The notes under the pieces are model-generated. The model was not told the DNA's origin. It searched no databases and worked only from the letters and a program-made list of their open reading frames with translations. The translations under genes and the position numbers were made by a program. From Octopus sinensis (lineage: Eukaryota), in contig NC_042999.1 in assembly GCF_006345805.1 (NCBI RefSeq), positions 131,316,001 to 131,380,000 on the forward strand: a stretch of 64,000 nt of DNA, read 5' to 3'. Shown here piece after piece: positions 2,338 through 44,896 of the stretch; within the stretch, counting starts at the first letter, position 1; each line of letters begins with the position of its first letter.

Positions 2338-3546
2338 CTAAAATTACCCTGGACCCTTTGTCAGATTGAGTTTATACTGGTTTCAAATTTTGGCACAAGA
2401 CCAGAAAATTGAGAGGGAGGAGGTAAGTCAATTACGTTGACCCTAGTGTTCAACTGGTACTTATTTTATCAACCCTGAAAGGGTGAAAGGCAAAGTCAAC
2501 CCCAGTGGAATTTGAGCCCAGAACGTTTTGAATTAATCATGTATTATCTTATAGTTTCAATATTTCGATGATGTGATTGTTTATTTTTAGAATGACATTG
2601 TAGGGTAGGTGGGAAAGTCCAGATCAGGCAGAAGATTTGGGTCAGATATGGTCAGTTTAAATGTTAAAGGGTAAAAGTTTTAAAAATGTACTTTTATGTC
2701 TAGAGATCTTGCTTAGATCAACTGTGGCTTTCATTCTTCAAGGGATGATAAAATACTTAAATTTTTTATACTCCTTCCACAAAATGTGTGACCCCCCCCC
2801 CATCCCTCTCTAAGTCAGAAATAAATATACCCTCATCTATTTCTATTCTTTAATAAATCAACAACATAACATATATGTCATTGCTTGACTTGTTAGAAAT
2901 ATTAGCCAAATTTCTATCAAATCACATCGCATGATAATTACAAAATGGAAAAAAGGACACACTCCATAATATAGAACAAGATACTGCTAGAAAGACAGAA
3001 TAGAGTCATGGCTTGAATACCTTTAACCTGTTGGGAGAGAATTCAGTTGGAACTAAACTACAACTGTTTACAATATTATTAAAAAAATCACAACACTTGA
3101 TAAAATATAATACCAGTCACATTCTAGGGTAAATTATAACTGTGTACAGAAACCCTTATATTTCTATTCCTTAAAACTTCTTACAGCAACAGCAACACAG
3201 TGTTTAATGGATATCATCCTCACAATCATCTTTTTAGCATCCACTTTTCCTATTAGCATGAATCAGACAGAATTTTGTTGAGGCAAATTTTCTAGGGCTA
3301 GATGCCCTTCTTGTCACCAACCCTAACCTATTTCTAAGCAAAAGCAAGGTAATGCTTCTAAACCAGTATATGTGCTAATTAATTCAAATTTCAGGAAATA
3401 TTCAGTAACACATGGATGTATGATGAAAGATTTCCAGACAATGGACATAAGATAAAATGAGCACAATAAAAAACGAGTGAAGAACGAATATATAGTGTGT
3501 GTGTTTATTTGGCAAATAACAATATCAAGTGAACATTTTTCATTAC

Positions 3547-3611
3547 CTCTTCTTGGTGTCTCTCAAACAAGGAAAGATCTCCTTCAGCCAGCAGCTTCAC
3601 ACTGTTGAAAC
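3547..3611 (-). CDS. TTC25: TTC25 coding exon 4
   Basis: attcag| (S)FNSVKLLAEGDLSLFERHQEE |gtaatg; 65 nt, phase 1-0; resembles TTC25 SIKLENKGDLSF. Confidence 0.9.
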
Positions 3612-3889
3612 CTGAATAAGAGAGTCATCTTTATTTTTTAGTAATATAACCATAAGAACATGTGTGTTTCTATGAGTGTATCTCTTTACTGAAAGACACG
3701 TAAATGAAATAGATGGTCATCATTGAATACAATAGACAACAAATGAAATATACACATGTAGAAATATATATATATATATATATATATATCATCATCATCA
3801 TCATCGTTTAATATATATATATATAAGAATTTTTTGCGTAATGAGATAAAAAACCAAGGCTGTGTAGATATTAGAACATTTATAGATAG

Positions 3890-3938
3890 GTCTTACAGCT
3901 GTTTCCAGGATATTTATTAATATCCCTTCATCAGAGAC
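3890..3938 (-). ncRNA. Minimal type-I hammerhead ribozyme motif (Penelope-type)
   Basis: GTCT-CTGATGA-AGGGATATTAATAAATATCCTG-GAAAC-AGCT-GTA-AGAC: intact core, stem I GTCT/AGAC, stem II GGATAT/ATATCC, palindromic stem III. Confidence 0.8.
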
Positions 3939-3970
3939 GATGTGAGAAGGTGGTTAAGTCCTCTCACACC

Positions 3971-4022
3971 GTCTCCGATGAAGGGATATAATTAATAAAT
4001 ATCCTGGAAACAGCTGTAACAC
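3971..4022 (+). ncRNA. Degenerate hammerhead, opposite arm of the same fold-back
   Basis: GTCT-CCGATGA-...-GAAAC-AGCT-GTA-ACAC; core U>C change and broken stem I. Confidence 0.6.
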
Positions 4023-4659
4023 CTTCTAATATCTACACAGCCTTGGTTTTTTATCTCATTATGCAAAAAAAATCATAAATACACACGCTGACATAGAACC
4101 AACGTTGAACCCCTTATTCGCAAAATTACCGAATATGGAACTTAACTATGGTCTGTCTATAGCACTTATTCAGCATTACCTGACACCTTTGGGTCTCAAT
4201 GACACCATTATCTCTTATATATATTCTCACACATATATGCATACACACATACATACCTCTTACCATTTATCTTTCACTTGTTTCAGTCATTAGACTGCAA
4301 CCATGCAGGGGCACTGCCTTGAAGAGTTTTTAGTCAAACAAATCAACCCTAGTATTTTTTTTTTAACCTAGTACTTATTCAATCAGTCTCATTTGCTGAA
4401 CTGCTAAGTTTCAGGGATGTAAACACACCAACACCAGTTGTCAAGCAGTAGTGGGGGACAAACATAGGCACAAAAAACAGTCCCCCCCACACACACACAA
4501 ACAACAGGCTTCTTTCAGTTTCCATCTACCAAATTCACTCACAAGGCTTTGGTTGGCCCAATGTTATTGCAGTAGACACTTACCCAACATGCTACGCAGT
4601 GGGACTGAACCTGGAACCATGTTGTTGGGAAACAGAATTATCACACAGCCAAGCCAGCG

Positions 4660-4705
<46 letters not shown>

Positions 4706-4795
4706 ATATTAATAATAATAATAATAATAATAATACAACAAAAGAATGAATGATACCTCAATATCATGTAAAATAGAAGAATTTATCAATAAATA

Positions 4796-4982
4796 TAATA
4801 TTTGACAATTAGTTCGTTGTCATAATAAAACTCAGAGTTTCAGATTCTGGGGCTGAAGTCTGTTCCGGCATCTCATCAGTTCTTTCTTGGTAGTTCCGCT
4901 GATAAGATGCCAGAGCAGACTTCAGCCCTGGCATCCGAAACTCTGAGTTTTATTATGACAACCAACTAATTGTCACATATTT
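4796..4982. mobile_element. Fold-back cassette, HHR-like core in each arm
   Basis: Arms of about 83 bp; CTGATAA-GATGCCAG..CTGGCATC-CGAAAC on plus, CTGATGA..TGAAAC on minus. Confidence 0.65.
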
Positions 4983-4984
4983 TC

Positions 4985-5363
4985 AAAATTGAACCAATCC
5001 TATGACTGGCACCCGGCAGATGCCAGGACCCCTGGACTGGTGGTACGTAAAAAGCACTATCTGAATCGTGGCCGATGCCAGCGCCGCCTCGACTGGCTTC
5101 CGTGCCGGTGGCACGTAAAATGCACCAATCCGACCGTGGCTGTTGCCAGCCTCGCCTGGCACCTGTGCGGGTGGCACGTAAAAAGCACCCACTACACTCA
5201 CGGAGTGGTTGGCATTAGGAAGAGCATCCAGCTGTAGAAACATTGCCAGATAAGACTGGAGACTGGTGCAACTTTCTGGCTTCCTAGATCCCCGGTTGAA
5301 CCGTCCAACCCATGCTAGCATGGAGAACGGACGTTAAACGATGATGATGATGATGATGGTGAT
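4985..5363 (+). mobile_element. GC-rich retroposon with (GAT)n tail (RTE-type 3' end); copies at 13642-13982, 34756-34953 and 60461-60601
   Basis: Internal GGTGGCACGTAAAA repeats; ends CATGCTAGCATGGA..GGACGTTAAA(CGAT)GATGAT. Confidence 0.8.
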
Positions 5364-5966
5364 GATATATATATACATATATATATATATATACACATAT
5401 ATACATACATGTGTGTAGAAATATATGTTTGTGCATAGATGTATGTATAAACATTTGTGGAGAATATCTACTATAATAATACTCTTGTGTATTTCTCCGT
5501 CACAACATATGAATGAGGAAGGAAGGATTGATGGCAATTCTATGTGAAAAAAAAATTGAACAACATTTCAATGCTGTGTATGTGTGTGCCTGTACAAGGG
5601 AAGCATGTGAACATTTGAATGGATCGATGTCACATCTCAAAAAACAACCACTAGATAGCATTGAGAAGCATATTAATTTGAATTACCATTCATTTTCTAT
5701 CTTTTGTCCTTATTTATATATAAAATTATCTATATATAAAATACTACAATCAGCTGTCATTTTTGATGGTGCAGGGCTAGCTAGTATTATATATATTTAG
5801 ACAAATAGACCATTAAATCCATACTGTAGTCTCATATGTCACCTGTTTGAGTCAACTGAAAACTAAATACCTACTCAGATACCTACATGAAACTGAAGTA
5901 TAGGTTTACTGGTGGAGAGAAAAAGTAAAAAAAGCATTTAAAAAAATCACAGTAAGTAGTACATAC

Positions 5967-6120
5967 TTCCAATACTGTTATTAATAGCTTCTTGTGCCTT
6001 GCTAATACCAAGAAGAAACTCTTGTAATTCTGGTCTGAGTTTATTCCCACGGTGGAAGTACACAAGAGCTGTTTCAAAATCTCCCAGCTGGTAAAGTGCT
6101 TCAGCTTTCCGAAGTATGGC
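5967..6120 (-). CDS. TTC25: TTC25 coding exon 3 (not in ORF track frame)
   Basis: ttgtag| AILRKAEALYQLGDFETALVYFHRGNKLRPELQEFLLGISKAQEAINNSIG |gtatgt; 154 nt, phase 0-1; matches TTC25 KAETLY.MGDFEFALVFYHRG.KLRP...KAQEAINNS. Confidence 0.95.
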
Positions 6121-6164
6121 CTACAATCAAAATGATCTTATTTCAAAAATATATAAATATAGTG

Positions 6165-6230
<66 letters not shown>

Positions 6231-6400
6231 ATATATATACATACTGTTCTTAAATGGCTAATATTACTCTTCTGTTAAGTAATTATTTCCATTTCAAAAC
6301 ATAATCTCCAGCCAAATCACTTGTAAAAGAAGTACAATTTGATATATATATATATATATAATATATATATATATATATTATATATATATATATATATAAA

Positions 6401-6523
<123 letters not shown>

Positions 6524-6552
6524 TATAAATTAGGGTATCTGAGAGATACCAC

Positions 6553-6732
6553 CATGCTGAAAATAGCAGTCAAAACCTGACTCTAAAACCACATTAAATG
6601 TTCATATAGTACTAGGAGAGAGATAGTAAAATTTTTTTGCTAGTTTATTTTGTCTCTTTGTCTTCTCTCCTAGTGCTATATGAACATTTAATGTGGTTTT
6701 ATAGTCAGGTTTTGACTGCTATTTTCAGCGTG
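6553..6732. repeat. Inverted repeat (about 70 bp arms), no HHR seen
   Basis: catgctgaaaatagcagtcaaaacctgact... versus ...agtcaggttttgactgctattttcagcgtg. Confidence 0.8.
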
Positions 6733-6769
6733 ATGAAAATAGCAGTCAAAACAATCTCCATGACTTTCT

Positions 6770-7340
6770 GTGTCAAGTGCTGCTTCCTGAACTTCTTTAA
6801 AAAAGAGATGTGAAGCCATGGCATGGACTAAGATTTTGTTTCTAGATTATAAAGATATGGCCACATTTCAAGCCCTGTCACCACATCAGGAAAAAAACCC
6901 CATCTTCATTGTCTTCAAATGCTTCCAGCAGATCAGAGCAGACTTCCACCTTTCTCTCCTTCAAATTGAATACCAACTGCTGAGATACCCACTCTACAAA
7001 CAGTCTCTGATACCCAAAGTCTTTCATCATCTTTTGTAACACATTGTGACCGATGTCCAGATGTGCCTCAATTCACAGGTTCTGACACACTTGTCTGCAC
7101 AAATCATTTCATTGAATCACTAGTGATACAGGTCAATGATTCTAGTTGATGGCTTCCCAATGCATAATTTGTCATCAATGCTGGTTATCTTTTCTTTAAA
7201 CTCCATCTATCTGTGCACATTGCTCTTGTCAATAGCCTCATTTCTGTTAACAACCAGTAACCTTCTGTGGACAGCCTGTACCTTTCCTTCATCAAGAGCT
7301 GAACAACAGCACACTGTTCCTGCTCGGAACAATGTGACAT
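6770..7340 (-). mobile_element. Decayed mariner transposase fragment
   Basis: WVSQQL(=WVPxxL)..KERKVEVCSDLLEAFE..VVTGLEMW(=VTGDETW); stops and frameshifts. Confidence 0.75.
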
Positions 7341-9125: not shown

Positions 9126-9364
9126 GACGGCAAAAAAAGTACCTGTTGAATTCCCGCCCAGATATTTCGTTTAGAGAAGTTGCTGTTGTTTTGTTTTGTT
9201 GCTTTTTTTTTTTCCTGCTTGTTTAGTGTTTTCTTAAAACTCTGCAGATTTTTTTCCTTGTCTCTTCTTGTGGATCCTTTATTGTAATTATTACTTTATT
9301 TATTCCCCTTTATGTGGGAACACATAAAACATCGAAAATGAAAGCGCAACGATAAGTAAAATAA

Positions 9365-15411: not shown

Positions 15412-15980
15412 AACAACAACATATATATATATATAAACAAACTTATATCTGTTTTCTTGAAGCATCAAATGTTTATCGTATTATAAGACAAAAAAGTAAT
15501 ATTTGGAACACAGTATCGCTGTGAAAACAACAAAAAAATTGGATATTATGACAATTGCAACATGGAAAAAAGTTGTGTCATGGCTGTTTGTTGACAACTT
15601 TTTTCCATCTTGCACCAAATTTTTCTGCTGTTTTCATAGCATTACTGCATTCAAAATATTACTTTCTTATCTGAATAATACAATTCACATTCGGCACTTC
15701 TAAAAAGCAAACATAAGTTAGTTTATATATATGTTGTTGTTACATTTCAAAACAGCTATATATTTAGCATTTAAATTCGATGGAGATTGTTGTCAGTAGG
15801 CAGTTTAGCTTAATGGTAAAGTACTCAGCCAGTCTCTGAAAGATGCAGGTTCATGTCCTGTGGCTGTTTGTTGACAACTTTTTTTCTATCTTGCAAGGGT
15901 AATAATACCCAATTTCTCTGCTGTTTTCACAGTGATACCACATTCGAAATATTACTTTCTTGTCTGTATAATATAACAAA
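15412..15980. mobile_element. Fold-back of a repeat body (15412-15740) followed by a tRNA-headed direct copy (15798-15980)
   Basis: Three copies of gttgacaactttttt..aatattactttctt (one inverted); A/B-box-like TAGCTTAATGGT and GGTTCATGTCC. Confidence 0.6.
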
Positions 15981-19700: not shown

Positions 19701-20284
19701 CTGTAATCTACATAACCTAAAACATATTTGTAAAAAAAAAAAAACATTAAAATATGCATTTTTCAGAAATTTACAAAGAAACAAAGTCAAGAGTGAGGAC
19801 AAACACTTCTGTAGTTGCCTACAATGTATTTACAAATGTGGAATGGCACTAACCCTAATATTTTGCTCCAGAGAAACTTCTCAAAAATAGATGTGTTAAA
19901 AACAACAGGGCCTCACTCAAAATGTTGATTGATCTCAGTGAAAAATACCTCAGACATTCTAAGCCAAACCAAAACATTTTCTGACATTCGTTTCGTTCAG
20001 TCATGTATATACATACATACATACATATTGATATATAATTACACACACACATGCATATACATAGACATTTATACACTTAGTTTACAAGTGATCTAAATGA
20101 TTAGGTACACTAGGTAAGTACTGTAACGGATTACAAGGGCTCCAAGGTTATAGCTGAGACAGTATTTATGGAGCCATTGCAGATTTCCGATGCAGAAGAT
20201 ATATAATTGCTAAAGAGAGCAACAAACGTTAAGGCAAGGCAAACATCTCAAGTCATATTCATTACTATTATTGGAAAAAATTCA

Positions 20285-20340
20285 GTCTTACAGCTGTTTC
20301 TGTAATATCCCCAAGTGTGGAATATTCTGTCATCAGAGAC
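20285..20340 (-). ncRNA. Minimal type-I hammerhead ribozyme motif
   Basis: GTCT-CTGATGA-CAGAATATTCCACACTTGGGGATATTACA-GAAAC-AGCT-GTA-AGAC. Confidence 0.75.
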
Positions 20341-20390
20341 AAATAGGGAAAATGAGAAGGGTGTACATACCCTTCTCATTTTCCCTATTT

Positions 20391-20446
20391 GTTTCTGATG
20401 ACGGAGTATCCCATACTCAAGGATATCCCAGAAACAGTTGTAAGAC
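20391..20446 (+). ncRNA. Minimal type-I hammerhead ribozyme motif
   Basis: GTTT-CTGATGA-CGGAGTATCCCATACTCAAGGATATCCCA-GAAAC-AGTT-GTA-AGAC. Confidence 0.7.
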
Positions 20447-20524
20447 TTTGAATTTTTTCTAATTATAATAATGTATAGGACTTGAGATGTTTGCCTTGCC
20501 TTAACGTTTGTTGCTCTCTTTAGC

Positions 20525-20562
<38 letters not shown>

Positions 20563-42748: not shown

Positions 42749-42980
42749 ATATTATCCAAAATGTATAGTATTAAATATCCATCATGGCTGGTCTTACCAA
42801 TCAGTTTTGTGTAAAGAATACAATGGAGTGTTAGGTAACAAACCCATTATATAACGATTCTGGTGAGCGTAAAATTATATAACCGGTTTGTTACCTAACA
42901 CTCCATTGTATTCTTTATGTGAAACCGATTGGTAAGACAAGCTGTGATGGATATTTAATACTATACATTTCAGATAATAT
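42749..42980. mobile_element. Fold-back cassette with HHR remnant
   Basis: Arms of about 105 bp; GAAACCGATTGGTAAGAC on plus mirrored by gtcttaccaatcagtttt. Confidence 0.7.
42856..42938 (+). ncRNA. Degenerate hammerhead with long stem II
   Basis: CTGGTGA-GCGTAAA...TTTATGT-GAAAC-CGATTG-GTA-AGAC. Confidence 0.5.
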
Positions 42981-44510: not shown

Positions 44511-44896
44511 TATATACATGCATATATAGGTACAGGACATCAAAAAAAACATGAACAGAATGAGAAACGAGAACATAAAAAATAAAAACATGGAAAACAA
44601 ACTTTTTACGAACAACGAAAAAACAAACAAACAGAGAAACGAGACATGCAACATATAGAACATTTCCTTCATCAGTTGTCCCTTATTTTATCTACTCTGC
44701 ATTTCAACTTCGAAACATGGAGTAGATAAAGCAGGGGACAACAGATGAAAGGAATGGTCTTTATGCTGCATGTGTCGTTTCTCTGTTTTTCCGTTGTTTG
44801 AAAAAGGTTCGTTTTCTTTATTTTTTTTTACGTTCTTGTTTCTCATTTTGTCTGTTTTTTTGATGTCCGTCCTGTACCTATATATGCATGTATATA
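44511..44896. mobile_element. Fold-back cassette flanked by TA-rich sequence
   Basis: Arms of about 190 bp (ataggtacaggacatcaaaaaaa / ttttttgatgtccgtcctgtacctat). Confidence 0.75.

Follow-up and report, generated by a model that had tools for sequence, protein, structure and literature searches.

Two head-to-head hammerhead ends in an intron of octopus TTC25: most probably a severely truncated Penelope-like insertion, predicted to be masked and non-cleaving

The window, a stretch of 64,000 nucleotides of Octopus sinensis DNA, contains exons of TTC25/ODAD4 on its minus strand (Table 1). Exons were numbered by sequence reading, from splice sites and an ATG near 9126. The exon at 6120-5968 matches ODAD4/TTC25 chains in PDB (E 2e-17), and further TTC25-like exons are found within 40 kb downstream of the window. 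An earlier note on this DNA had described an intact-looking hammerhead ribozyme in intron 3, about 280 nt upstream of the exon 4 acceptor. The motif is indeed inside this intron, downstream of the exon with the ODAD4/TTC25 match, and the predicted cut is 283 nt from the acceptor (3894 to 3611).

Table 1. Positions of the insertion, its parts and neighbouring features in the window
Feature	Position	Strand	Remarks
TTC25/ODAD4 exon 4	3547..3611	-	acceptor at 3611
(TA)n, left edge, likely target	3808..3825	.	TA run past right edge too, 4215-4224
Short pLTR arm, tail absent	3822..3961	-	sense strand of TTC25; runs into (TA)n target
Hammerhead motif, minimal type I	3890..3938	-	predicted cut after 3894
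Head-to-head junction	3959..3961	.	arms abutting with 2-3 nt overlap, from the sequence
Long pLTR arm	3959..4079	+	family-type CCGAUGA core at 3975-3981, from arm comparison
Element tail, ~135 nt, one arm only	4080..4214	+	also in 25/87 sampled copies
Second hammerhead-centred head-to-head palindrome, same intron	4786-4992	.	unrelated repeat family
TTC25/ODAD4 exon 3	5967..6120	-	splice-site reading and ODAD4 match

The motif is part of an inverted repeat, which had been given as 3828..4073 and which we find on the + strand of the window as a 245-bp palindrome at 3830-4070. The minus-strand RNA is predicted to fold into a single hairpin (MFE -169.4 kcal/mol, z -28), and none of 200 shuffled sequences folded as well. 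On the minus strand, positions 3938-3890 read in the order GUCU, CUGAUGA, A, stem II, G, GAAA, CAGCU, GUA, AGAC. Stem I consists of 4 bp (3938-3935/3893-3890). The core CUGAUGA (3934-3928), in which U4 (3933) is a derived C>T change, is followed by an extra A (3927) and the 8-bp stem II (3926-3919/3914-3907), which starts with a G-U pair in place of the conserved G10.1-C11.1 pair. An extra G (3906) precedes GAAA (3905-3902), so that stem II is flanked by an additional purine on either side. Stem III and its loop are palindromic (3902-3895, sequence ACAGCUGU).

The core is complete, as claimed, with CUGAUGA, GAAA and GUA all present, and no other motif passed a scan of the window that required the core and both stem I and stem II. 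The minimal type I core CUGANGA...GAAA...UH is matched by the minus arm alone, by virtue of the derived C>T; this agreement with the 11-nt core consensus counts against reading the insert as a relic. The statement that all three stems are kept is correct for the 4 bp of stem I, but stem III is reduced to 2 bp closing the palindromic loop. In the monomer, the hammerhead fold is predicted to lie 5.8 kcal/mol above the ensemble, with a stem III pair probability of 0.0005. Rfam searches of the window returned no hammerhead, neither at the gathering score nor at E<=10, and only generic hairpin matches. Because of the low stem III probability and the missing Rfam match, the motif is not a canonical monomeric hammerhead.

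Judged by sequence, the two arms of the palindrome are the pLTR of a Penelope-like retrotransposon (EN+). Both edges of the insert are within TA runs, inside which a target-site duplication cannot be placed. The initial part of a common repeat, (CAT)n-CGTTTAA, lies at 3787-3811 and breaks off immediately at the insert's left boundary; a complete copy of this repeat is present on the minus strand at 5370-5000. The plus arm was previously thought to have lost a core U as well as stem I. Stem I is broken, by a G>C change at 4020, and there is a 12-nt deletion near 4023, whereas U4 was not lost, the C at this position being the subfamily state. Between the minus and plus arms there are 4 substitutions over 101 columns, as well as deletions, a divergence within the range for ten other palindromic copies (3-19 differences of 113).

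The arms belong to a large repeat family. A genome search with one arm yielded 3,806 first-look candidates, and identity was 91-97%, self-match aside, in the 40 of these that were scored. An 18-mer across the core has 2,931 exact copies in the genome, compared to none for the reversed control. Family copies share a common 3' end and have variable upstream cut points. The same motif is found in sense orientation about 1.1 kb behind pieces of a GIY-YIG-like ORF (L136, L156, L158 and L159). In L136, two copies face each other head to head at a distance of 3.5 kb and enclose ORF pieces; L041 is collinear with L136 from the motif through the end of the ORF. A protein search of the genome gave 158 matches. 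Seven ORF-bearing stretches were fetched; in three (L156, L158, L159) the ORF is followed by the same arm in sense orientation, and in the other four, one of which represents another family, the arm is missing. The element ORF was absent from most of the inverted or tandem loci that were fetched.

The ORF in L156 contains the reverse transcriptase motifs MGS and YRDD, and 17 of its 31 homologues at E<=1e-27 carry PF26215, which we take to be a Penelope-like-element-associated family. The endonuclease piece was matched to GIY-YIG clusters in Atlas (0.96), and in L158 to Pfam PF01541 with an E-value of 0.004, below cut-off. Pfam searches of the family ORFs gave no reverse transcriptase match and, for the first two ORF pieces, no match at all. 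The endonuclease piece was also used in two homologue searches, neither of which gave a match. In longer copies, a Cys linker (CxCxxxxxCPL) precedes the GIY-YIG-like piece. Such a linker is described, in excerpts of PMC8557442, as a mark of the Neptune and Nematis clades, and by this feature the element would belong to one or the other. In the ORF of the family (L156-L162), thumb and endonuclease are separated by long Asn/Thr-rich stretches, which resemble the N-rich insertions in Penelope elements of rotifers as outlined in part of PMC3846280. A related Penelope-like family has a frame of 919 codons (L160:2113-4869) with reverse transcriptase motifs and a GIY-YIG match above the Pfam cut-off.

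Head-to-head pairs recur in the genome. For a census, 90 loci were picked by core pattern alone, and 87 remained after three duplicates had been dropped. A head-to-head partner within 1.5 kb was present in 14 of the 87 (12 distinct, two pairs being the same insert); a tail-to-tail partner was present in 2 and a tandem one in 5, and 70 were solo. Most pairs examined have one arm ending at a TA run and the other continuing into the tail, like in the window. Pair centres vary among copies, and the arms are separated by approximately 0 to 3.5 kb. The observation that the antisense arm is read before the ribozyme arm on the minus strand is correct; it follows from the head-to-head geometry, which automatically puts an antisense arm first on either strand of any such pair. 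In the available parts of the literature, an inverted 5'-truncated pLTR with an optional tail is presented as the typical Penelope-like layout (PMC8557442; PMC3846280), with head-to-head as the commonest arrangement (PMC3846280). Dual hammerhead motifs, located on opposite strands at a spacing of 100-700 bp, are reported for metazoan Penelope-like elements (PLEs) in a section of PMC4209133, and the tail is linked to two reverse-transcription start sites in one of PMC11167929.

One palindromic copy, L105 (G000:C4:57344322-57344740), has a CCA change in both arms, with differences at only 3 of 113 sites, and diverges by 7% from the nearest other available copy. Conversion between its arms is possible; homogenisation between arms was seen in at most 1 of 11 palindromes.

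Other palindromes were also noted in the window. The one at 4786-4992 has a CUGAUGA core and the stem III ACUCUGAGU; its family has 1,013 first-look candidates, many of them palindromic as well. A third hammerhead-centred palindrome, at 20199-20534, is a distant relative of the Penelope family studied here, with the same stem I/III and with U4 in both arms. Those at 6550-6735 (in TTC25 intron 2), 42749-42980 and 44618-44799 are not microsatellites, and a scan found no hammerhead core in them. Inverted repeats at 15486-15965 surround a sequence at 15799-15869 that resembles a tRNA (Rfam tRNA, 36 bits); this may be a SINE within a fold-back element.

Position 4 of the core was compared across the family. 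Genome-wide, the core reads CCG in 1,610 copies, CTG in 991 and CCA in 207. A 34-mer characteristic of the window subfamily has 350 copies, including 51 with CTG and 45 with the mirror change CCA; the first 100 of these 350 matches comprise 78 CCG, 10 CTG, 11 CCA and 1 CCC. The near-equal numbers of CTG and CCA point to CpG decay on both strands in this subfamily. Two other CpG columns have also decayed, CG being kept in 18/30 and 20/30 siblings. CpG decay as the source of all CTG copies was considered and rejected, since 991 CTG copies stand against 207 CCA copies genome-wide. The excess of CTG is explained by U4 in older subfamilies, and decay covers the young subfamily only.

A tree was calculated from 60 pattern-picked copies and the two window arms, with position 4 masked and a midpoint root. 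In it, U4 subfamilies, mostly with C11.1, are set apart from C4 subfamilies, and both window arms nest among C4/U11.1 copies. C at 11.1 is found in 22/30 CTG copies, in the older subfamilies. End branches tend to be longer in the U4 groups, which suggests that the U4 subfamilies are older than the C4 ones. Compared with 30 siblings, the minus arm shows 4 substitutions over 139 columns as well as small deletions; the median divergence of the siblings is 3.5%, a value biased low by their selection on a fixed 34-mer. By these comparisons, the C4 of the plus arm is the family state, and the minus arm has gained U4, probably by CpG deamination, which would turn CCGAUGA into CUGAUGA. The apparent asymmetry between the arms, which might suggest selection, is accounted for by neutral CpG decay, and arm divergence within the genome looks neutral.

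The motif is predicted not to cleave. Its stem III would need a second copy on the same strand: two copies of the motif adopt a double-hammerhead layout (dimer MFE), in which stem III has 8 bp, and the palindromic stem III forms a self-duplex of 8 bp (-11.1 kcal/mol). Single minimal PLE hammerheads showed zero cleavage and dimers low cleavage in experiments covered by a portion of PMC4209133, and a review agrees, in the part concerned, that cleavage is absent from the single minimal motif and low in dimers (PMC6765202). There is no same-strand partner motif in the 64-kb window plus 40 kb downstream (104 kb). Since the motif is of the dimer type and its same-strand partner is missing, it would be inactive even if unmasked.

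The motif is also predicted to be masked. In the pre-mRNA the arms would pair to form a long duplex, and the proposal that the upstream arm masks the ribozyme is borne out by predicted opening penalties of 65 kcal/mol with both arms and 59 kcal/mol in nascent RNA, calculated from nearest-neighbour energies that ignore core tertiary contacts and proteins. Unmasking by A-to-I editing, which had been proposed in addition, finds no support in the same calculation: 57 kcal/mol are left if all 37 A's of the arm are read as G, and 29 kcal/mol if they are unable to pair. Editing on the ribozyme arm would moreover alter core A's. The orthologous site was compared in assembled contigs of 4 out of 24 listed runs, from organisms B, C, D and E; the repeat family is present in all four (3,451-6,787 contigs each). 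The exon 4 flank is found as one contig in three of the four, with 0, 1 and 12 differences. Contigs break at the flanking microsatellites (3752-3836 and 4209-4300 uncovered), and none spans the insert.

Together, these data are best explained by a severely 5'-truncated Penelope-like insertion that consists of little more than two head-to-head hammerhead ends and that is predicted to sit in the TTC25 intron as a passenger, masked and without cleavage; we hold this reading with high confidence. The head-to-head copies are likely to stem from one insertion event. Reverse transcription would start at the tail end and stop just past the hammerhead, fold-back or self-priming would add an inverted copy begun at the inner site, and the whole product would insert into a (TA)n run. 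Since then, both arms would have drifted.

The alternatives fare much worse. The ribozyme could be dead and the duplex functional, as an edited hairpin that alters exon 4 splicing or gives small RNAs. Long duplexes are ADAR substrates, editing is heavy in cephalopods, and the near-perfect 245-nt hairpin is only about 210 nt from the acceptor. However, the arms show no sign of constraint, their substitutions and deletions being within the range of other palindromes, and at least three repeat-derived hairpins are present in the first three TTC25 introns. We consider a functional duplex very improbable.

The reading favored earlier, a co-opted ribozyme gated by the hairpin and cutting TTC25 intron 3 upon unwinding or editing, is if anything a shade less probable. 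The sense orientation, the consensus core letters, the 4-bp stem I and the distance to the acceptor all fit, and conserved intronic hammerheads exist in amniotes, according to passages of PMC6765202 and PMC3088659. Against this, U4 is a product of CpG-type decay, which about 15% of siblings show as well, and the half from GAAA to stem I is also kept in 21/30 siblings. The motif is of the dimer type and has no partner; the other hammerhead of the intron, at 4879, was tried in a heterodimer and rejected, as the pairing amounts to merely -1.7 kcal/mol. A barrier of 29-65 kcal/mol would have to be overcome, and this arrangement comes automatically with any insert of the kind. Finally, a mobile palindrome, MITE- or retrozyme-like and spreading as a hairpin, would fit the many palindromic copies in the genome but is hardly credible, since centres vary, 70/87 copies are solo and longer copies reach the ORF, which indicates that each inversion is made anew.

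The truncated Penelope-like insertion can be compared with known systems, as far as these are described in the relevant parts of the cited papers. Like C-terminal-endonuclease PLEs (PMC8557442; PMC3846280; PMC11167929), the family has the ORF order reverse transcriptase, Cys linker, GIY-YIG-like endonuclease, a hammerhead near the 3' end, an inverted copy at the truncation point, a one-arm tail and (TA)n edges. Unlike in those units, the tail is ~135 nt instead of 30-40 nt, and truncation is so deep that the two ends alone persist. The minimal hammerheads of metazoan PLEs (PMC4209133) share the 4-bp stem I, the 8-bp stem II, the extra nucleotide between 9 and 10.1, the palindromic stem III/loop and the dimer fold; in the present subfamily, by contrast, position 4 is C instead of U, the 10.1-11.1 pair is G-U instead of G-C, and G12 is preceded by an additional purine. 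The amniote RECK and C10orf118 hammerheads are likewise in sense orientation inside introns, and are conserved, with robust cleavage in vitro, in the account given in part of PMC3088659, whereas the TTC25 copy is a young repeat, of the dimer type, masked and without a sign of constraint. Non-LTR retrozymes, in the portion available of bioRxiv 10.64898/2026.07.22.740005, are similarly non-coding and pLTR-derived with a type I hammerhead, but are arranged in tandem, head to tail, with two or more motifs on the same strand, compared to the head-to-head arrangement with one motif per strand found here. Excerpts of PMC13282606 and PMC6962438 list PLEs in octopus annotations, leaving hammerheads unmentioned there, and 235 Rfam hammerheads in the giant squid.

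The 1,610 exact C4 copies raise the question of how this lineage spread. Tentatively, and with somewhat less than even confidence, we suggest that the Penelope-like family went from U4 to C4 and then from G-C to G-U at 10.1-11.1 while amplification continued, in which case either C4 works in dimers or weakened ribozymes spread. In the pertinent sections of the literature, U4C is associated with considerably lower activity in vitro and still possible viroid infectivity (PMC3088659), insertion in vitro proceeds without hammerhead cleavage (PMC11167929), and the core is written 'CYGANGA' (PMC13481778). Our literature search found nothing on C4 cores or cephalopod PLE hammerheads. Lunse et al., who reportedly describe dimeric PLE hammerhead variants, and supplements of other papers may already include C4 cores. 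An unrelated minimal-hammerhead repeat has 8,596 exact 29-mers genome-wide and is present in L006, L014 and L029; its first 100 matches comprise 70 CCG, 28 CTG and 2 CCA, and both U4 and C4 forms seem to have been amplified.

The insert is likely an ordinary relic, an inert scar instead of a TTC25 switch. The Penelope stump probably has no consequence for TTC25. More generally, caution is advisable, since Penelope-rich genomes will yield an 'intact hammerhead behind an antisense arm' through insertion geometry, and an intact-looking hammerhead core can be a CpG accident. At the same time, the family offers a graded natural series, U4/G-C, C4/G-C and C4/G-U, in lineages that transposed, and this core series bears on the role of Penelope hammerheads and on whether cleavage is required at all.
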